Positions 49,682-58,181 are shown, counted from the stretch's first letter. The stretch: 64,000 nucleotides of DNA from an uncultured Acidimicrobiales bacterium (GCA_902805655.1 CADCTF010000059.1:3140-67139); one strand, 5' to 3'. Notes: generated by a model from the sequence alone, not told the origin. Numbers and translations are program-made.

Positions 49682-50098
49682 TTAGGTCTCCGTCGGGCGG
49701 AACCGGTACAGAGCGGCGCCATCTCCGGCGTCTTGGAAGACGACCTCGACCGCTTGGCCGATGGAGACCGACTCCGGATCGCACTCGACGATGTTCGTGA
49801 GGATGCGCGGGCCCTCTTCCAGCTCCACGTAGGCCACCACGAAGGGAGCGGCGTCCTTGTACGGGCCCTGGCCCTTGCGGACGATGGTGTACGTGTAGAT
49901 CGTGCCCTTGCCGGAACCCTCGAACCACGAGGTGTCGGTGCTGTGGCAGTCGGGGCAGACGAAGCGCGGGTACCAGATGATGACGCCGCACGAGTCGCAC
50001 CGCTTGAGCAGGAACTTGCCCTGCGCGGCTGCGTCCCAGAACTCCTGGGTGTCGAAGTTGGGCGACGGGGCGGGAACGGGCAGCGGGTTCGCGGTCAT
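49682..50098 (-). CDS. Zn-ribbon/OB-fold protein (DUF35 family), partner of SCP-x type thiolase
   Basis: FWDAAAQGKFLLKRCDSCGVIIWYPRFVCPDCHS...GKGTIYTYTIV...VVAYVELEEGPRILTNI. ATGA overlap with the upstream thiolase gene. Confidence 0.8.
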   Translation of the reverse strand: MTANPLPVPAPSPNFDTQEFWDAAAQGKFLLKRCDSCGVIIWYPRFVCPDCHSTDTSWFEGSGKGTIYTYTIVRKGQGPYKDAAPFVVAYVELEEGPRILTNIVECDPESVSIGQAVEVVFQDAGDGAALYRFRPTET

Positions 50099-51279
50099 GC
50101 GTCTTCCCTTCCGAGGATGAGGGTGGCACTGCCCATGCGGGTCGACAGCGCGCCGCCGGTGCCATGGGCCAGGACAATGTTGCAATCGGGCACCTGCACG
50201 GCGGGATGGGCCTCCCCGCGCACCTGGCGCACGGCCTCGAGGACCTTCGTCATGCCTCCCCGGTTGGCCGGGTGGTTGTTGCAGAGGCCGCCTCCGTCGG
50301 TGTTGAACGGGAGCTTGCCGTGGGGAGCGACGAGGGCGCCGTCGAGCACGAAGCGCCCACCCTGGCCCTTCTCGCAGAAGCCCAGGTCCTCGATCTGCTC
50401 GAGCACGGTGATGGTGAAGGAGTCGTAGATCGACGCGTAGTCGATGTCCGCCTGGGTGACACCGGCCTCCTCGAACGCCCGTGGGCCGGACCACACCGCC
50501 CCGGAGTAGGTGAGGTCCACTCGACCGTTCATGGCGTGCTTCTGCGCCTCACCGTGACCGAGGATCTTCACGGTCTGGCGGTCGAGGCTGTGCGCCACCT
50601 CGGGGCTGACCACCACCACCGCGCCGCCGCCGTCGGTGATGACACAGCAGTCAAGCCGGTGCAGGGGGTCGCTGATCATCGGTGAGGCCAGCACCTCCTC
50701 GACCGTCACCACGTTCGGCATGAGCGCGTGCGGGTTGTACTGGGCGTGGATGGAGGCGGCCACCTTGATCTCCGCCAGCTGCTCGCTCGTGGTGCCGAAC
50801 TCGTACATGTGGCGCTGCGCGGCGAGGGCGTAGTTGTACGGTGCGCCGGCCAGGCCCCAGAGGCCCTCGAAGCTCGTCTCGGGCGGCGCGTCCACACCCC
50901 CGCCGCCGCCACCGCCTCCGCGCGGCCCGCCCCGGCTGCTGCGGGGCTTGCCGGCCAGGGTGACGAGGGCAACCGAGCACTTCCCGGCGGCGATCGCCGT
51001 GGCCGCATGACCCACGTGCCCGAGGTACGACGAGCCGCCCGTCTCGGTGTTGTCCAGATAGCTGCACTGCAGGCCGAGGTAGTCGACCATGGAGATGCCG
51101 CCCATGCCCGGGACGGTGGAGTCGCAGAAGTAGCCGTCGACGTCGCTGAGTGTGAGGCCGGCATCGGCCACCGCGCCGAGGGCCACCTCGGCATGGATCT
51201 GCGTGAGCGTCCGGTCCGGGATCTCTCGCCGTGGATGCTCGTAGATGCCGGCGATGAACGCCTTGCCGCGAATGCTCAT
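50095..51279 (-). CDS. Thiolase-like lipid-transfer (SCP-x/nonspecific thiolase) protein
   Basis: KAFIAGIYEHP... thiolase-fold segments including CCVITDGGGAVVV and GGGLCNNHPANRGGMTKVLEAVRQVRGE. Start ATG 51279. Confidence 0.85.
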   Translation of the reverse strand: MSIRGKAFIAGIYEHPRREIPDRTLTQIHAEVALGAVADAGLTLSDVDGYFCDSTVPGMGGISMVDYLGLQCSYLDNTETGGSSYLGHVGHAATAIAAGKCSVALVTLAGKPRSSRGGPRGGGGGGGGVDAPPETSFEGLWGLAGAPYNYALAAQRHMYEFGTTSEQLAEIKVAASIHAQYNPHALMPNVVTVEEVLASPMISDPLHRLDCCVITDGGGAVVVVSPEVAHSLDRQTVKILGHGEAQKHAMNGRVDLTYSGAVWSGPRAFEEAGVTQADIDYASIYDSFTITVLEQIEDLGFCEKGQGGRFVLDGALVAPHGKLPFNTDGGGLCNNHPANRGGMTKVLEAVRQVRGEAHPAVQVPDCNIVLAHGTGGALSTRMGSATLILGREDA

Positions 51280-51520
51280 GCGCGCCCCCTGGTCGTCTTC
51301 CACCGGCTCTGCACCGGCGGAACTTCGAGACTCTAACCAGCGGCGGGGCGTGCCTGGGTCAACCGAGCGCGCGAGTGGGGGTTGCGCGAGTGGTCATGCC
51401 CGCTCATTCGCGGCCTGGTCACTCAACCACTCCGGCAAGCCCGCCGATCCACGCCGTGTGCAACCAGTACGCAACGGCGTGCAGTTGACGCGACGACACA
51501 AGGCGAGGGACAGGGAGATC

Positions 51521-52012
51521 GTGAACGTTCGAAGTGGTGCAGCTGTCGCAGTGGGTGTGCTGGCGTGGCTCGGCCTGGGTTCGCCGGCGGCCATGGCCCA
51601 GGAGAAGGAGACCTTCCCGGTGTTCGAGTGTGCGGCACCGAACAGCGACGGGACGTTCACCGGCTTCTTCGGCTATCAGAGCGGCGAGGCCGCGTCGGTC
51701 GTCATGCCAGTCGGAGCACAGAACCAGTTCACCACCCCGGCGCACGATCGCGGGCAGCCCACCACCATCGCTCCCGGGCGCCACGTGGCCGTCTTCTCCG
51801 TCCGCTTCGCGGCCGGCGACCAGGTGATGTGGCACCTGAAGACCGCCAACGCCGTCGCCGACGCGACGAAGCTGTGCTCGGCACCGGCGGAGCTGGCCGA
51901 AGTCGGGACCTGGCTGGCGCTGCCGGCGGCATCGGCGGCGTCGCTGGCGGGCTGGGTGCTGGTGCAGCGGCGACGGAACAACCAGCGGGTCGCTCCGACC
52001 CCAGCCGGCTAG
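51521..52012 (+). CDS. Small secreted protein with C-terminal tripartite anchor-like signal (short motif, hydrophobic helix, Arg cluster)
   Basis: N-terminal signal AAVAVGVLAWLGLGSPAAMAQE. C-terminus SAPAELAEVGTWLALPAASAASLAGWVLVQRRRNN. GTG start at 51521 preceded by GGGAG. Confidence 0.5.
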   Translation: MNVRSGAAVAVGVLAWLGLGSPAAMAQEKETFPVFECAAPNSDGTFTGFFGYQSGEAASVVMPVGAQNQFTTPAHDRGQPTTIAPGRHVAVFSVRFAAGDQVMWHLKTANAVADATKLCSAPAELAEVGTWLALPAASAASLAGWVLVQRRRNNQRVAPTPAG

Positions 52013-52033
52013 CGGCGGCCCTACCCGCCGCCC

Positions 52034-53638
52034 ATGCCCATCACCGCGCAGCTGCCCATCGACGCCCCGGGCGAACTGCCCCTGAGTGACGCCTTCAGCG
52101 GCCGCTCCGCGGGCATGGGACGGTGGCGGATCACCGTGCTGGTGATCGCCGTGCTCACGAGCCACTTCGCCGCCTTGCGCACCACCTTCGCCCCCATGCT
52201 CGGCGCCATAGGGCGTGACGGGGCGGCAGCGCTCGACCCGAACGGGCCGTTGGTCTTCGTCCCGTTCATACCTGTCGCGGCCCTGGCGGTTGCCCTCACG
52301 CGTTGGCGCGGTGCCGATCAGGAATCGGTGGCCATCCCTCAGCGTGCGGCCGACGCCGTCATCGCCGCCTTCTTCCTCGCCGTCGCTTGGCTCGCTGCCA
52401 AGGCGGGGCCCACGGTGTTCCAGTCGGACACCCTGGCCTGGCGCGCGGACCTGCTGTCGCTGGCGCCTTTCACCGCAGCCATGGTGGTGGCGCTCTTCGG
52501 GAGCCGGATGCTGACCCGGCTGCGGCCGGCGCTGTGGCTGCTGACGCTCATGGCGCCGGCCCTGTACCGGCCGCTGATCGAGCTGGCCCGGCAGGCGTCG
52601 AGCTACCTCACCATCAACGCAGTGACCCAGCTCTCGTCGACCGTTCCGGGCCTGGCCATGGCCGGCCGGATCGACGGCAGCTACCTCGTTCTCGGGCGCG
52701 GCGCCGAGCGCACCGTCGTCGCGGTGACCTCTGCGTGCGGCGGCGGTGGCTCCGTGCTGGCCGCTCTCGTCGTGGGCGCGGTCGTCTGGCAGCTGACTAC
52801 GGGTCCGCGGCGGCGAAAGCTCCAGTGGACGGCGATGGCCGTGGCCTTGGTGTGGGTGGCGAACCTCATCCGGCTGGCCCTGCTGGTCGGCGCCGCGTCG
52901 TGGCTCGGCCCCGTCGTGACCCTCCGGGACATCCACCCGTGGCTGGGCGCGCTCAGCCTGCTGGGCGCGCTGTCGCTGGCAACGGCCCTGATCCCGCGCT
53001 TCGGTCTGGCGGGCCGTCGGGTGCCGACACCGGCGCAGCCCCTCCGGGCGGTGACCCGGCCCGACCTCTCGGTCGTCGCCCTCGTGCTGTCTGCGACCCT
53101 CCTGATCGCGGGGCCGGCCCACGCCGCTGCGGTGGGTTGGGACCTGACGACGGGCGCCTCCCGCCAACCTTCGGCGAGCGCCACCGCGACGGTCGACGAC
53201 CTCACCAGCTCCCGGCGGCTGGAAGACGTGGCATGGGTGGGCGAGTACCTCGGACCGGGCTCGACCTGGAAGCGCTGGCTGCTCTTCGACAGGACCGGAC
53301 GCGCTCCGATAGCCGTCGACGTGACCGCTGCGCAGGATGCAACTCGATTCGACCAGTACGGCATCGCCGCCTGCCTCGGGTTCCACGGCGCCGTCATCCT
53401 CGAGCGCGACGTCGTGGCACTGCCCGGGGGCCGCAAGGCCGAGCGCATCACCTACCGGCCCGACGACCGCCCGGTCACTTCCGTGCTGAGCTGGCGCCAG
53501 CGGGTCGGGACCAAGACGGAGCGCATCGTGCTGCACCGGGCCGTGCTGGATGCCGAGTCCTACGAACAGTCCGTCGAGCCGCTGTACCTCGTGGCCCTCG
53601 AGATCCTGATGGGGGTCGATCATGCCGTCGTCGGTTGA
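52034..53638 (+). CDS. Exosortase/archaeosortase-family polytopic membrane protein with C-terminal extra domain (possibly EpsI-like)
   Basis: Multiple TM helices. The candidate Cys/Arg/His signature occurs in the family order: VTSACGGGGSVL, VANLIRLALLV, IHPWLGALS. A soluble tail of about 220 aa follows the last TM. Confidence 0.6.
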   Translation: MPITAQLPIDAPGELPLSDAFSGRSAGMGRWRITVLVIAVLTSHFAALRTTFAPMLGAIGRDGAAALDPNGPLVFVPFIPVAALAVALTRWRGADQESVAIPQRAADAVIAAFFLAVAWLAAKAGPTVFQSDTLAWRADLLSLAPFTAAMVVALFGSRMLTRLRPALWLLTLMAPALYRPLIELARQASSYLTINAVTQLSSTVPGLAMAGRIDGSYLVLGRGAERTVVAVTSACGGGGSVLAALVVGAVVWQLTTGPRRRKLQWTAMAVALVWVANLIRLALLVGAASWLGPVVTLRDIHPWLGALSLLGALSLATALIPRFGLAGRRVPTPAQPLRAVTRPDLSVVALVLSATLLIAGPAHAAAVGWDLTTGASRQPSASATATVDDLTSSRRLEDVAWVGEYLGPGSTWKRWLLFDRTGRAPIAVDVTAAQDATRFDQYGIAACLGFHGAVILERDVVALPGGRKAERITYRPDDRPVTSVLSWRQRVGTKTERIVLHRAVLDAESYEQSVEPLYLVALEILMGVDHAVVG

Positions 53639-55100
53639 GATTGCGTCGGACGCACCACTGCGATCGCGGCGCCTGCGAAGGTGGGACGACAACCGCCACC
53701 GCGTCGCCCGCCTCGTCGCCCTGCCACTGGTGACCGCGCTGCTCTTCGCCGTGCGCGCCGCCGTCTTCCCCGAAGGCAGGCAGCCACAGCACTGGTGGGA
53801 CCGGTCGCTCGTGCTGGCCTCCTGGCTGTGGGTCGGCGCCGTGCCGGCCACCGCTGTCGGGGTCATGGCGCTGCTCGTTCCCCGCGGACGCCGCCGGGAG
53901 GACTCCGGCGGACCGATCGAGCAGATCGTCTCCTTCCGCATCGTGTCCCGCGGCACCAACGCCACCGCGCTGGCCGACACCGTCGCCGCCATCCGGGCGG
54001 CCATGGCGCAGCGGCCCCTGTTCGACCACCGGATCGAGGTCGTGACCGACCAGGCCGTCGAGCTGCCCGAGGGGCCGGACCTCTTCGCCCACGTCGTGCC
54101 GCCCACCTACGAGACGCCCAACGGCTCCAAGTACAAGGCCCGGGCCCTGCACTACCTCTCGGAGACGTCGGATCTTCCCCTCGACGCCTGGGTCTTCCAC
54201 TGCGACGAGGAGTCGCACGTCACGGCTGGGCTGGTCGGAGGCATCCGGGACGCCATCGCCGAGGAAGAGGAACGGGCTGCCGAGGGCCTCACCCCTCGCA
54301 TCGGCCAGGGCTGCATCCTCTACTGGCGCAACCTCCGCGCCCACCCGCTGCTCACGCTGGCCGACTCGCTCCGCACGGGCGACGACGTCACCCGGTTCCT
54401 GGCCCAGTTCCGCAGCGGGGCTCTGATGTGTGGCATGCACGGCTCGTTCATCCTGGTGCGGGCCGACATCGAGCGGACAGTGACCTTCGACGTCGGCCCC
54501 GAGGGCTCGGTTACGGAAGACGCGTGGTGGGCCTACTCGCAGGCCCAGCAGGGCCGGGAGTTCCGGTGGGTGGACGGCTACCTGATCGAGCAGTCACCTG
54601 AGCACTGGGTCGACTTCGTGAAGCAGCGCCGCCGGTGGTTCTCGGGACTCTGGAAGGTGTGCCTCTACGCCCCTGCACCGTTCCTCGCCCGGGCCGTCCT
54701 CATGGGGTTCCTGACGGGCTGGCTGCTCTCGGCTCTGGGCGGCGTGTACACGGTGGTGAACCTGTTCACCGGCTACTACACCCCGCTCATCCCGCGAGTG
54801 CTCGGCGCCGTCGTCATGGCGTGGTACGTCAACTGCTACCTCACCGGGCTGTGGCTGAACCTGCGGGGCATGCCAGCCGACGTGCAACCAGGGCGTCCGA
54901 TGCGCCTGCTGCTGACCGTCGCGCAGGTGATCCTTCTGCCGGTGTTCGGAGTGCTCGAGGGCCTCGGCGTGCTCTACGCCCTGGTCAAGCCTGAGCGCGG
55001 CTTCCACGTCGTGAAGAAGCGCGGCTCAGGCGGCGAGGGCTCGGCCGACGCCGGACTGTCCGAAGCGGCCAAGCAGCCCGAGCCGGCCATCGCCGCCTAG
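53622..55100 (+). CDS. Membrane-bound processive family 2 glycosyltransferase
   Basis: HCDEES (D,D,D-type region), VTEDAWW, QRRRWFSG (Q(R/Q)xRW motif), N- and C-terminal TM helices. It overlaps the exosortase-like gene by 17 nt. Confidence 0.75.
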   Translation: MPSSVEIASDAPLRSRRLRRWDDNRHRVARLVALPLVTALLFAVRAAVFPEGRQPQHWWDRSLVLASWLWVGAVPATAVGVMALLVPRGRRREDSGGPIEQIVSFRIVSRGTNATALADTVAAIRAAMAQRPLFDHRIEVVTDQAVELPEGPDLFAHVVPPTYETPNGSKYKARALHYLSETSDLPLDAWVFHCDEESHVTAGLVGGIRDAIAEEEERAAEGLTPRIGQGCILYWRNLRAHPLLTLADSLRTGDDVTRFLAQFRSGALMCGMHGSFILVRADIERTVTFDVGPEGSVTEDAWWAYSQAQQGREFRWVDGYLIEQSPEHWVDFVKQRRRWFSGLWKVCLYAPAPFLARAVLMGFLTGWLLSALGGVYTVVNLFTGYYTPLIPRVLGAVVMAWYVNCYLTGLWLNLRGMPADVQPGRPMRLLLTVAQVILLPVFGVLEGLGVLYALVKPERGFHVVKKRGSGGEGSADAGLSEAAKQPEPAIAA

Positions 55101-55132: not shown

Positions 55133-55690
55133 TCATGGCCGGGGCGGCCGGGCCGGTCGGGGTGACCGAGCGTCTGCCGGCCGCCGGCCGGTCACGCAGA
55201 ACATGGCGCCGTCCGGATGGCGCCGGAGCTCACAGGCGAACCCGCCGAGCTCGAGGTTGGCGGCCACCACCGGGCCGACATCGCGCGCGGAGCGTGCCGG
55301 CCCCTCATAGACCAGGTGCACGGCCGCACCGGGCCCGAGCGCCCCGAGCAGCACCTCGCACTCCTCGGCGGCGTCGGTCGTCCAGAACAGGTTCACGTTG
55401 ATCGCAAAGGCGACGTCGAACGCACCGGGGTCCGGCCGGAAGGCAGCCAGGGCCACCTGCTCGAGCACCACACGTCCCGAACGCACCGACTCGGCGTTGC
55501 GAGCCCGGGCCCGTGCGAGCGCAGTGGCCGAACGGTCGATGGCCGTGATCGTGCCGCCCTGGAGCCGCTCGGCCACGAGCGCCACCGCCACGCCTGGTCC
55601 GCACCCGATCTCGAGGACGCGGTCATCGACACCCACATCCAGGAGATCGACCGCCCATGCGATCCGCGCCGGCACCGGAGTAGCTGCCAC
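55133..55690 (-). CDS. Class I SAM-dependent methyltransferase
   Basis: RVLEIGCGPGVAVALVAE (motif I) ... FDVAFAINV. Start taken as GTG 55690. The longer 423-aa track ORF runs antisense into secDF and is discarded. Confidence 0.7.
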   Translation of the reverse strand: MAATPVPARIAWAVDLLDVGVDDRVLEIGCGPGVAVALVAERLQGGTITAIDRSATALARARARNAESVRSGRVVLEQVALAAFRPDPGAFDVAFAINVNLFWTTDAAEECEVLLGALGPGAAVHLVYEGPARSARDVGPVVAANLELGGFACELRRHPDGAMFCVTGRRPADARSPRPARPPRP

Positions 55691-55844
55691 TTCCGGGACC
55701 GTACCTGCGGAGCGCGCGCCGCCGCCTACGCTCGGGGACGCCCATGCACTCCGCTCTCCGGCCGACCCCGATCGTCGTGCGCCCACCCGGACCGGTAAGC
55801 GGGTTGTCAGCAGGCCGGCGTCTCGGCCAGGTCCGGAGGAAGAC

Positions 55845-58181
55845 ATGAAGAAGCTCGCATGGCGCACCCTGCTCGTGCTCGTGGTGCTCGGCTCGGCCGT
55901 CGCGTTGGTGGCCACCCGGCCGGCGCGGCTCGGTCTCGACCTGCGCGGCGGCACGCAGATCGTGCTGCAGGCCCAGGACACACCGCAGCAGCAGGTCGAC
56001 GACGACACCGTCGACCGCACCCTCGAGGTGCTCCGCCGGCGGGTCGACCAGCTGGGGGTCTCCGAGCCGAACCTGCAGCGCTCGGGGGCGGATCGAGTCA
56101 TCATCGAGCTGCCCGGCCTCTCCGATCCGGACGATGCCATCGAGGTCATCGGCAAGACGGCCCAGCTCGCCTTCCACCCTGTGCTCGGTCCGGCGTCGCC
56201 GGTCGACCCGGCGAACCCGCAACCAGTCGCCGACGGTGAGATCGTGCTGCCCGACGAGGACGGCGCGCCGCTTCGCCTCGGCCCGGCGTCGGTCACCGGG
56301 AACGATGTGGCCGACGCCCGCCCGACCCTCGGCGGCAGCGTTGGCACCGAGTGGCAGGTGAAGGTCGACTTCCGCGCCGGAGGCAACAGCTGGGCGGAGC
56401 TCACCGGTCAGGCGGCCTGCTTCCCGGCCGGGAACCCGCAGCGGCGGGTGGCCATCGTGCTGGACAACACCGTCGTGCTGAGCCCTCAGGTCGACCCCGG
56501 GGTCCGATGCCAGGAAGGTCTCACCGGTGGCACCACAGTGATCACCGGCAACTACACCGAGGACGAGGCGAGCGACACGGCGCTGCTCATCCGGGCCGGC
56601 GCACTGCCGGTGCCGGTGGAGATCATCGAGCGTCGGACCGTGGGACCCACGCTCGGCGATGCGGCGATCAAGGCGAGCGTGCAGGCCGCCATCATCGGCG
56701 CCACGCTCACCATCCTCTACATGCTCTTCTACTACCGGCTGCTCGGTGCACTGGCTTCGATCGCGCTGCTGAGCTACGGGGCCATCGCCTACGCCGTGCT
56801 GCTGGCCCTGGGCGCCACCCTGACCCTGCCGGGCATCGCCGGCTTCGTGCTCGCCATCGGCATGGCGGTGGACGCCAACGTGCTCGTCTTCGAACGCATG
56901 AAGGAGGAACACGCCGGCGGGGCGTCGGTGCGTGGCGCGGCGCGCAACGGGTTCAGCAAGGCCTGGACGGCCATCGCGGACTCCAACGCGACCACCGTCA
57001 TCGCCGCCGTGCTGCTGTTCTTCCTCGCCTCCGGAGCCGTCCGCGGCTTCGGCATCACGCTGACCGTAGGCGTGGCGGTGTCACTGTTCACCGCGCTCGT
57101 CGTCACCCGCCTGCTCGTGGACCTCGTGCTGCGCCGCAAGTCCCTCGTGGCCAAGCCGAAGCTGCTCGGCCTCGAGGTCGGCGGCGGCTTCCGCCAGCGC
57201 CTCCTCGAGCGACGCCCCAAAGTCGTGCACGGCTACCCCAAGTGGCTCACCATCTCTGCTGTCGTGATGGTGCTGTGCATCGGCGGCCTCTTCGTGCGAG
57301 GTCTCAACTACGGCATCGAGTTCTCCGGCGGCACGCTCACTGAGTTCGATCCGCGAGGCGAGGTCTCGCTCGACGATGTGCGGGACGCCGTCGTCAGCGC
57401 CGGCTTCCCGCGGGCGGTCGTGCAGGCGTCCGGCAACGCCAACGTCGTCGTCCGCACCGAGCAGCTGAGCCTCGAGCAGGAGGACACCCTCAAGAACGCG
57501 GTCGACTCGGTGGCCGGAGACTCCACCGTCGTGCGGGAGGAGTTCATCGGGCCCACCATCGGCAACGAGCTCCGTCGCAAGGCGCTGATCGCCCTGGGTC
57601 TGGCCCTCGGTGCCCAGCTGCTGTACCTCGCGGTGCGGTTCCGCTGGAGCTACGCCGCAGCCGCGGTGGCCGCCATGTTCCACGACCTGTTGATCCTCCT
57701 CGGCGTCTTCGCCTGGATGGGCAAGTCGGTCGACGGTGTCTTCGTGGCCGCCCTGCTCACCGTGGTCGGCTACTCCATCAACGACTCCGTCGTCGTCTTC
57801 GACCGCATCCGGGAGCTGCGCCGGGCCCGTCCCCGGGAACCGCTCGTGGACGTGGCCAACGAGGCCTGCCTGCAGACCGTGCCGAGGACCATCAACACCG
57901 GTCTCGGCGCGCTCTTCATCCTCTTCGCCCTCTACTTCCTCGGCGGCGAGACGCTGACCGACTTCGCCTTCGCGCTCCTCATAGGCATCCTCGTCGGCAC
58001 CTACTCCTCGGTCTTCACGGCCGCTCCCATCGCGGTGATACTCGAGGGCTGGGCCGGCCGGCGTCGCCCGCAGGCACCCGAGAAGAAGATCGGTGCGCGG
58101 CCGGCCGGTGGGCCCGCCCGCCCGACGCGGCCGGCGCCGGCGGGGGCTCAGAGGCCCCGCAAGAAGGTGGCGCGGAGCTGA
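55845..58181 (+). CDS. secDF: Fused protein-export membrane protein SecDF
   Basis: SecD part: LGLDLRGGTQIVLQA...VSEPNLQRSGADRVIIELPG...GPTLG. SecF part: NYGIEFSGGTL...IGPTIGNELR...NDSVVVFDRIRE. GGAGGA lies upstream of ATG 55845. Confidence 0.9.
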   Translation: MKKLAWRTLLVLVVLGSAVALVATRPARLGLDLRGGTQIVLQAQDTPQQQVDDDTVDRTLEVLRRRVDQLGVSEPNLQRSGADRVIIELPGLSDPDDAIEVIGKTAQLAFHPVLGPASPVDPANPQPVADGEIVLPDEDGAPLRLGPASVTGNDVADARPTLGGSVGTEWQVKVDFRAGGNSWAELTGQAACFPAGNPQRRVAIVLDNTVVLSPQVDPGVRCQEGLTGGTTVITGNYTEDEASDTALLIRAGALPVPVEIIERRTVGPTLGDAAIKASVQAAIIGATLTILYMLFYYRLLGALASIALLSYGAIAYAVLLALGATLTLPGIAGFVLAIGMAVDANVLVFERMKEEHAGGASVRGAARNGFSKAWTAIADSNATTVIAAVLLFFLASGAVRGFGITLTVGVAVSLFTALVVTRLLVDLVLRRKSLVAKPKLLGLEVGGGFRQRLLERRPKVVHGYPKWLTISAVVMVLCIGGLFVRGLNYGIEFSGGTLTEFDPRGEVSLDDVRDAVVSAGFPRAVVQASGNANVVVRTEQLSLEQEDTLKNAVDSVAGDSTVVREEFIGPTIGNELRRKALIALGLALGAQLLYLAVRFRWSYAAAAVAAMFHDLLILLGVFAWMGKSVDGVFVAALLTVVGYSINDSVVVFDRIRELRRARPREPLVDVANEACLQTVPRTINTGLGALFILFALYFLGGETLTDFAFALLIGILVGTYSSVFTAAPIAVILEGWAGRRRPQAPEKKIGARPAGGPARPTRPAPAGAQRPRKKVARS

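Follow-up and report, generated by a model that had tools for sequence, protein, structure and literature searches.

A candidate three-gene exosortase sorting cassette in an uncultured Acidimicrobiales bacterium

Three adjacent genes are the subject of this report. They occupy positions 51,521 to 55,100 on the plus strand of a stretch of 64,000 nucleotides from an uncultured Acidimicrobiales bacterium (GCA_902805655.1 CADCTF010000059.1:3140-67139), the whole of which is called the window here. The first gene (g1) encodes a small secreted protein that ends in what resembles a sorting tail, the second (g2) a membrane protein of the exosortase family, and the third (g3) a membrane-embedded glycosyltransferase of family 2 (GT2). 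A preliminary description of this DNA had taken the three as a single module of substrate, exosortase and processive-type GT2. That view is upheld by scores against hidden Markov models (HMMs), by an invariant catalytic signature, by collinear loci, and by the conservation of the tail. The trio exists as described, is conserved, and is related to known exosortase systems without being catalogued among them. That it is also a dedicated three-gene sorting cassette of this bacterium is the reading preferred here, with a probability of about 0.65. Calling of open reading frames (ORFs) places all three genes, co-oriented, where the description had put them, the 17-nt overlap between g2 and g3 included (Table 1).

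The case begins, of course, with the enzyme. Protein g2 scores 44.5 bits against PF09721, where the curated cut-off is 25.7, and 37.7 bits against TIGR04178, where it is 23. The second match covers residues 230-317, and the Cys/Arg/His triad expected of an exosortase falls entirely inside it. The order of these residues in g2 (Cys235, Arg280, His301) is that of the family, and the spacings first read from the sequence, 45 residues from Cys to Arg and 21 from Arg to His, are correct. No member of the close family (alignment A1) departs from any of the three, and across 76 diverse relatives (alignment A5) the conservation of each is 90% or more. Judged by these matches and this conservation, g2 is a member of the exosortase/archaeosortase superfamily.

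None of the named subfamilies takes it in. Against the Xrt, Art, and Crt subfamily models of NCBIfam release 20, g2 reaches no cut-off; its best scores are 29.3 bits for 8TM_EpsH (cut-off 105.55), 24.1 for XrtA (208), and 22.5 for XrtX (170). The 76 relatives have best subfamily E-values of ~1e-21 to 1e-22, an estimated ~75-80 bits, which would again fall under every subfamily cut-off. XrtA and 8TM_EpsH are the top-scoring subfamily models for this clade, and by sequence the clade appears to be nearest to these two. The NCBI pipeline calls g2-type proteins merely "archaeosortase/exosortase family protein". A search of solved structures by sequence gave nothing relevant to g2, and literature searches for exosortases in Acidimicrobiia or Actinomycetota gave nothing relevant either. 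Hydropathy and an AlphaFold2 (AF2) model give g2 ~9-10 helices, and the basic loops RRRK (residues 259-262) and GRR (residues 329-331) were used to assign sidedness. Hydropathy and AF2 would put the triad, the C-terminal domain of g2, and the folded domain of g1 on the same side of the membrane.

The candidate substrate is the 163-aa protein g1. It had been described as secreted and as ending in a tripartite tail, and both a signal peptide and the tail are indeed legible in its sequence. The tail runs CSAPAELAEVG-TWLALPAASAASLAGWVLV-QRRRNN, that is, a motif, a transmembrane (TM) helix, and a basic cluster. A homology search found 19 homologues of g1, all of them ~145-190 aa long except two that are untailed, and the homologues carry an equivalent n-h-c region of a signal peptide. 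In the AF2 model, residues 31-120 form a beta-sandwich with a predicted local distance difference test score (pLDDT) above 90, and a helix spans residues 133-154. Neither Pfam nor NCBIfam has a family that matches g1. A Foldseek search with the model returned generic beta-sandwich matches only, with E-values at or above 0.057; because these matches are so generic, no function is assigned to g1. The same sandwich (FEC..NxDG..FGY..DRGQPT) is also found without a tail, in proteins P0029 and P0030, one of which has it as the N-terminal part of a 280-aa protein. In another locus (L002, 3935-4917), two tandem paralogues of the small protein precede one exosortase, and both have intact tails (PPELSE and PAELSE).

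Sixteen tails were aligned (alignment A7). Invariant in them are a Leu-Cys pair, a Glu eight residues past the Cys, and then (L)P, A, W, and RR; within the TM helix of g1 the invariant residues are Pro135, Ala137, and Trp145. Anchoring on the basic cluster brings all tails into a single register, [V/L]-[P/A/S]-[E/D] followed by 19-23 hydrophobic residues and RR(R), in which the distance from Glu to RR is fixed at 19-23 residues. The window has ELAE at the motif, and its closer relatives have ELSE or VVAE(A/S)P. More distant relatives have VPEFP (L010, L019, L047) or VPEAP (L012, L015), in register with the ELAE of the window. Both prolines of PEP have been lost in the window tail, and the sole invariant residue of the motif is the Glu (E127).

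This alignment bears on the suggestion, made in the preliminary description, that a non-PEP motif might here define a new CTERM sorting class. One half of that suggestion survives, as the tail does lie outside the curated CTERM models. The PEP-CTERM model TIGR02595 (cut-off 16 bits) does not match g1, and it gives the VPEAP tail of L015 11.2 bits, under the cut-off. The other half does not survive. A wholly new class of tail was considered and rejected, because the VPEAP and VPEFP tails of the relatives share the register of ELAE. The conclusion drawn here is that the g1 tail is a degenerate PEP-CTERM in which only Glu127 is fixed, and is not a separate invention.

The tail is also found on other passengers. 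Two proteins unrelated to g1, one of 165 aa (L012, 245-742) and one of 277 aa and rich in Thr and Ser (L015, 3293-4126), end in VPEAP-TM-RRR, and both sit directly upstream of exosortases of the wider family. The Cys eight residues before the Glu is present in the tail from L012 and not in that from L015. Since the passenger domains are unrelated, the tail behaves as a portable, modular signal. An HMM of the tail was run locally, with filters off, against the window and against the six-frame ORFs of all loci (~390,000 residues), and only the ORF upstream of the exosortase matches. The homology search with g1 brought up no relatives that share the tail alone. One tail is seen in the window and one or two in each of the related loci. 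Judged by the DNA covered, one or two substrates appear to be all that the system serves.

The third gene had been called a GT2 with the processive QxxRW motif, and this identification holds. Protein g3 scores 69 bits against PF13632 (cut-off 27), and it has TED at residues 298-300 and QRRRW at residues 335-339, both invariant in alignment A6. A search of solved structures with the g3 sequence alone gave nothing relevant. A profile of g3 orthologues did reach the cellulose synthase BcsA (4hg6/4p00) and aligned both TED and QRRRW with it, residue for residue and at the same 36-residue spacing, although with 16 bits and an E-value of 0.023 the match is weak. Residues 193-197 are an invariant H-C-D-E-E, which stands where a DxD-type site for metal and nucleotide sugar is expected and may be that site. 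Hydrophobic segments, two on the N-terminal side and at least three on the C-terminal side, surround the catalytic domain. By HMM and motifs, g3 is a BcsA-like membrane GT2 of the processive type, and synthesis of a polymer is predicted for it.

What joins the three genes is their order. A word-indexed search of 5.8 billion proteins gave 11 close relatives of g2, all of them metagenomic. A pattern-limited scan of 185,579 species genomes gave 4 relatives, of which three are in metagenome-assembled genomes (MAGs) of Actinomycetota (one labelled Actinomycetota, one Mycobacteriales, and one Acidimicrobiales) and one is in an unclassified uncultured bacterium. The genome of the window had itself been judged Actinomycetota-like, and this label is correct, because g1 shares 99% identity with CAA9230813.1, a hypothetical protein from the uncultured Acidimicrobiales MAG AVDCRST_MAG50. 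Wherever enough flanking DNA is available, the order of tail protein, exosortase, and GT2 is kept: in the window and in ~15 loci (L001, L002, L003, L007-L010, L014, L016, L019, L021, L024, L031, L047, L048), down to an exosortase identity of 29%. Conservation is highest for the GT2, whose orthologues, which always adjoin an exosortase, are 50-87% identical to that of the window, with ranges of 29-83% for the exosortase and 23-78% for the substrate. The genes for exosortase and GT2 have 1-17 nt in common in 11 of 13 loci.

A divergent cassette stands somewhat apart (L004, 1156-4254). Its order and its enzyme type are both unlike those of the window: a homologue of g1 (35% identity, with no Glu in its tail) comes first, followed by a PgaC-like GT2, a 174-aa exosortase, and a 223-aa protein with a weak match to HEAT_2. 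On NF053846 (cut-off 520) the GT2 reaches 99.8 bits, and it also matches PF13506. The enzyme resembles the short exosortases XrtS and XrtR, its best model being XrtS with 35 bits (cut-off 145). Being under the cut-offs, the scores for the XrtP-associated glycosyltransferase and for XrtS are resemblances only. To judge by its genes, this cassette links the world of XrtG with that of XrtA/8TM_EpsH.

Behind the exosortase core of g2, the preliminary description had placed a soluble domain of about 220 aa, possibly EpsI-like. The first part of this needs correction, and the second has no support from sequence. The core is followed by a basic linker (GRRVPTPAQPLRAVTR), by a TM helix (residues 345-368), and then by a folded domain of ~165 aa, which AF2 models with a pLDDT of 70-90. 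The Foldseek matches of this domain are DcrB, PsbP, TiME, Apa, and EagT6/SciW, with E-values of 0.03-0.3 and probabilities up to 1.0; a PsbP/DcrB-like alpha/beta sandwich is predicted from the model. The EpsI models PF11984 and TIGR02914 do not match g2 at E up to 1. Furthermore, PF11984 matches none of the 76 relatives at E up to 0.1, and the 25 NCBIfam families listed for them, out of 32, do not include TIGR02914. Alignments to three long models (XrtW, XrtD, and XrtT) end at about position 312. A literature search found no paper on DUF3485 or on the structure of EpsI. The likeness to a fused EpsI is one of position and topology alone.

The outer domain marks a wider clade. An exhaustive search with its profile returned 331 clusters with an E-value of 1e-3 or less, 220 of them with 1e-10 or less, and most of the 331 are fusions to an exosortase, 500-600 aa long. 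Its single Cys447 and its His451 are invariant, with a conservation of at least 90% over the 76 diverse fusions, where W412, R414, D429, W487, and R497 are conserved to the same degree. Cys447 and His451 could form a second catalytic site, a relay, or a metal site. The domain is also found at residues 664-831 of P0148, an 889-aa protein that NCBI names "DUF4328 domain-containing", from a Candidatus Dormibacteraeota MAG and thus from outside the Actinomycetota.

These parts can be put together into a mechanism. Here, g1 would be exported via Sec and lose its signal peptide. Its beta-sandwich would fold outside the cell, probably with a disulfide between Cys37 and Cys119, and the C-terminal helix would hold the protein in the membrane with the RRR cluster in the cytoplasm. 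The 8-TM, EpsH-type g2 would then recognize the PEP-like ..ELAE motif (with Glu127) that abuts the helix, its triad being at the outer face, and would cut at or near the Glu motif by way of an acyl-enzyme (thioester) on Cys235, so that the helix and the basic tail are removed. A Cys235 thioester is proposed because of homology to the archaeosortase ArtA, in which Cys173 and Arg214 are required for activity (PMC9263693). The PsbP/DcrB-like outer domain may assist in the handling of substrate or acceptor. Last, g3, translationally coupled to g2, would make and export a glycan or a glycolipid, and this product would be the acceptor for the freed C-terminus of g1, or else the matrix where g1 ends up. 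It is the strict coupling of exosortase and GT2 that suggests such a role for the product. In the archaeal system, artA is syntenic with pssA and pssD, and both are needed for lipidation and cleavage (PMC7157517).

The steps do not all deserve the same trust. Cleavage of g1 by g2 is likely. A covalent bond between g1 and the product of the GT2 is a more tentative proposal, and the odds lean somewhat against it. The most specific form of the proposal makes the cassette a minimal and complete apparatus for coupling protein to glycan: as the GT2 makes its product, the exosortase would pass the new C-terminus of g1 to it, with Cys447 and His451 of the outer domain acting as a second catalytic or relay site. 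This must be considered unlikely.

Several observations weigh against the cassette reading, or against parts of it. The TM part of the g2 model has low confidence, with a pLDDT below 50 over much of residues 1-240, and the position of the triad at the outer face is what hydropathy and the positive-inside rule would give. No NCBIfam family, the curated CTERM models included, matches g1 at E up to 10. GT2s like g3 (37-48% identity) are found with no exosortase and no small tail protein nearby (L028-L030, L032, L033, L035, L038, L042-L044; that of L033 is on a low-GC Tara Oceans scaffold). Therefore, the GT2 can work independently of sorting, and its family is wider than the cassette; a restriction of the g3 family to the cassette was considered and is rejected on account of these homologues. 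Among the wider relatives of g2, the partner GT2 comes from other subfamilies, for example a NodC-like one, which argues against one specific glycan acceptor. The tail count covers 64 kb of the genome, and more substrates may be encoded elsewhere. All members of the cassette family come from metagenomes or MAGs, and those with a taxon label are Actinomycetota.

Of the other explanations, the one that fares best accepts the cleavage and drops the attachment. Here, the exosortase would simply release g1, with water as the acceptor; the polysaccharide of the GT2 would be a separate product, and g1 would sit in the matrix without a covalent bond, as in the floc model. PEP-CTERM/EpsH systems do lie in exopolysaccharide loci, and floc formation depends on their proteins, with no covalent link shown (PMC1569441; bioRxiv 10.1101/2023.06.07.544157). 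Simple release also accommodates the variation of the partner GT2 from branch to branch, between the g3 type and the NodC-like type, and the occurrence of g3 homologues without an exosortase. However, overlapping exosortase and GT2 genes in most of the loci, together with a GT2 that is the most conserved gene of the three, suggest more than co-regulation, and the Cys/Arg/His triad is the same as that of the transpeptidating sortases (bioRxiv 10.1101/2023.06.07.544157). Release alone is a somewhat unlikely account.

A second explanation keeps the transfer but changes the acceptor. The exosortase would exchange the tail of g1 for a lipid anchor in the membrane, as archaeosortase A does, and the GT2 would supply a glycolipid rather than a polymer. 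The substrates of ArtA are lipid-anchored, and the syntenic pssA and pssD are required for this (PMC7157517). PF13632 and related GT2 families include lipid glycosyltransferases, and the variant GT2 of L004 also matches PF13506. Further, the labelled members are Actinomycetota MAGs; if these cells are monoderm, as their affiliation suggests, the protein needs some anchor. Such an anchor is nevertheless improbable here, as the combination of TED, QxxRW, and TM helices on either side is what marks a processive polymer synthase, and the cassette contains no gene for lipid synthesis.

Under a third explanation, g1 is not a substrate at all. It would be a permanent subunit of the GT2, anchored by its C-terminal tail in the manner of BcsB, and the exosortase homologue would have some other role. 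BcsB, the partner of BcsA, is anchored via a C-terminal helix, and BcsA is the best relative of g3 in the PDB. A small protein of a single fold, present once or twice in each locus as g1 is, would also suit a subunit role. Yet a tail of motif, TM helix, and RRR on unrelated passengers (L012, L015) is typical of a sorting signal and not of a subunit interface. The agreement of the tail register with PEP-CTERM and the invariance of the exosortase triad also speak for sorting, and the GT2s of the g3 type that lack an exosortase lack the small protein as well. A permanent subunit is, therefore, very improbable. Finally, high GC does yield many long spurious ORFs, such as one of 895 aa antisense to this locus, but HMM E-values of 1.6e-11 and 6.2e-19 for the cassette, and homologues with conserved synteny in more than 15 independent contigs, refute the idea that the resemblance is a chance or annotation artefact.

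If the cassette reading is accepted, it is natural to ask which known system it most resembles. The nearest analogue is XrtG of the Firmicutes (TIGR03110, TIGR03111; L. plantarum, PMC12854382). The preliminary description had presented XrtG as a system with a glycosyltransferase and no known substrate, which is outdated: a Firmicu-CTERM protein is followed there by XrtG and then by two glycosyltransferases (PMC12854382). The two systems share a Gram-positive host lineage, the order of CTERM protein, exosortase, and GT2, the GT2 partner itself, and what looks like a small number of substrates. They differ in that g2 is a long, 8-TM enzyme of the EpsH type with a fused outer domain, whereas XrtG has ~190 aa, and in that one GT2 is present here instead of two. 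Neither TIGR03110 nor TIGR03111 matches g2 or g3 at E up to 1, and the Firmicu-CTERM model does not match g1 at E up to 10.

With XrtA/EpsH and PEP-CTERM (PMC1569441), the cassette shares the superfamily and its triad, a tripartite tail with a Glu-centred motif abutting the helix, and a link to polysaccharide genes; some EpsH proteins also carry a fused C-terminal domain. The differences are the actinobacterial host, a fused domain without the sequence signal of EpsI, and the number of substrates, which is one or two adjacent ones in the DNA covered here and a median of eight, scattered ones, there. With ArtA, PGF-CTERM, and PssA/PssD of Haloferax volcanii, it shares a homologous enzyme with a critical Cys and Arg (41 residues apart, compared with 45 here), what is probably a single-membrane cell in this case too, and syntenic genes that supply the acceptor. 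That system is archaeal, of course; it has a PGF motif, many substrates (the S-layer glycoprotein among them), and a phospholipid-based acceptor pathway in place of a GT2, and its model TIGR04125 gives g2 12.8 bits against a cut-off of 75.

Two further comparisons concern the GT2. XrtP and its associated glycosyltransferase (NF012139, NF053846) are likewise an exosortase paired with a membrane GT2, but g2 scores 20 bits where the cut-off is 200, g3 does not match NF053846, and the enzymes differ in length and domains. The BcsA-type synthases (4hg6/4p00) have TED and Q(R)xRW motifs that align with those of g3 and a cytoplasmic glycosyltransferase domain flanked by TM helices. Unlike them, g3 has no PilZ domain and no BcsB, only the generic PF13632 covers its family, and the similarity is very weak.

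The features of the locus are collected in Table 1. In the leader of g1 (51304..51520), a promoter scan found no sigma-70-type consensus promoter, and leader scans found no Rfam family and no terminator. Public annotation puts the start of g1 ten codons downstream (153 aa), which cuts the signal peptide short. The exact 534-aa g2 is absent from the protein collection; either a different start was assigned to it or it was missed as a gene. The 895-aa antisense ORF (window 51419-54106, minus strand) covers g1 and g2 and looks like a product of high GC; the plus-strand genes that it overlaps have conserved protein homologues.

Table 1. Features of the three-gene locus, in window coordinates.
Feature	Position	Strand	Basis or remark
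5' intergenic region of g1	51304..51520	+	Presumed promoter and leader; divergent thiolase gene on the other side
Ribosome-binding site GGGAGA	51509-51514	+	Read from sequence; 4 nt before g1 start
g1, 163 aa; secreted, beta-sandwich, sorting tail at the C-terminus; candidate substrate of the exosortase	51521..52012	+	ORF, GTG start
g1 Sec-type signal peptide, aa 1-26 (..AMA/QEK), MNVRSGAAVAVGVLAWLGLGSPAAMA	51521..51598	+	Read from sequence
g1 tripartite tail, aa 119-154 (Cys119, ELAE motif, TM helix, RRR)	51875..51982	+	Tail alignment A7
Invariant Glu127 codon of g1 tail	51899-51901	+	Alignment A7
g2, 534-aa exosortase-family polytopic membrane protein with fused C-terminal extracytoplasmic domain	52034..53638	+	HMM matches
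g2 exosortase signature region, aa 230-317	52721..52984	+	TIGR04178 match, model positions 2-88/97
g2 triad codon Cys235	52736-52738	+	SACGGG motif
g2 triad codon Arg280	52871-52873	+	ANLIRLA motif
g2 triad codon His301	52934-52936	+	IHPWLG motif
g2 extra TM helix, aa 345-368	53066..53137	+	Hydropathy and AF2 helix; would carry the C-terminal domain outside
g2 C-terminal alpha/beta domain, aa 370-534	53141..53635	+	AF2 model, Foldseek; predicted PsbP/DcrB-like
g2 invariant Cys447/His451 (AAC-x-GFHG)	53372-53386	+	Conservation
g3, 492-aa membrane-embedded GT2 synthase	53622..55100	+	PF13632; 17-nt overlap with g2
g3 motif CDEE	54201-54212	+	Alignment
g3 motif TED	54513-54521	+	Alignment
g3 motif QRRRW	54624-54638	+	Alignment

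The neighbours of the cassette in the window are unrelated to it: a solute-binding protein, ChsH2-like and thiolase genes (minus strand), a methyltransferase, SecDF, and a Na/H exchanger. The ChsH2-like gene (zinc-ribbon/OB) and the thiolase-like gene (window 49682-51303, minus strand) also flank the cassette in L003 (604-2204) and in the distantly related L015 (278-2990), which is probably lineage synteny rather than a functional link. A fused SecDF gene (window 55398-58181) lies ~700 nt 3' of g3, past the minus-strand methyltransferase. At the equivalent position, L003 has an unidentified 717-aa gene fragment, and no such neighbour was seen in L001 or L002.

The finding matters for annotation. 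The enzyme, the tail, and the GT2 would each warrant a curated model of their own, as the proteins are now annotated as "hypothetical" or by the generic "exosortase family". The fused outer domain is described by no library and occurs in at least 220 sequence clusters. The tail shows how far a PEP motif can decay with the Glu alone retained. It also extends PEP-CTERM-like sorting to the Actinomycetota; the original paper (PMC1569441) reported PEP-CTERM only from bacteria that have an outer membrane, and not from actinomycetes.

The prediction of exosortases dates from 2006, and their attachment partner, if there is one, has long been sought (bioRxiv 10.1101/2023.06.07.544157, PMC1569441); a minimal cassette could help to find it. 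The cassette described here is near the smallest possible, with a single enzyme, a single GT2 tightly coupled to it, and one or two substrates. If transfer onto the product of that GT2 is true, this three-gene operon would be the first case of an exosortase whose acceptor is directly legible in the genes beside it.

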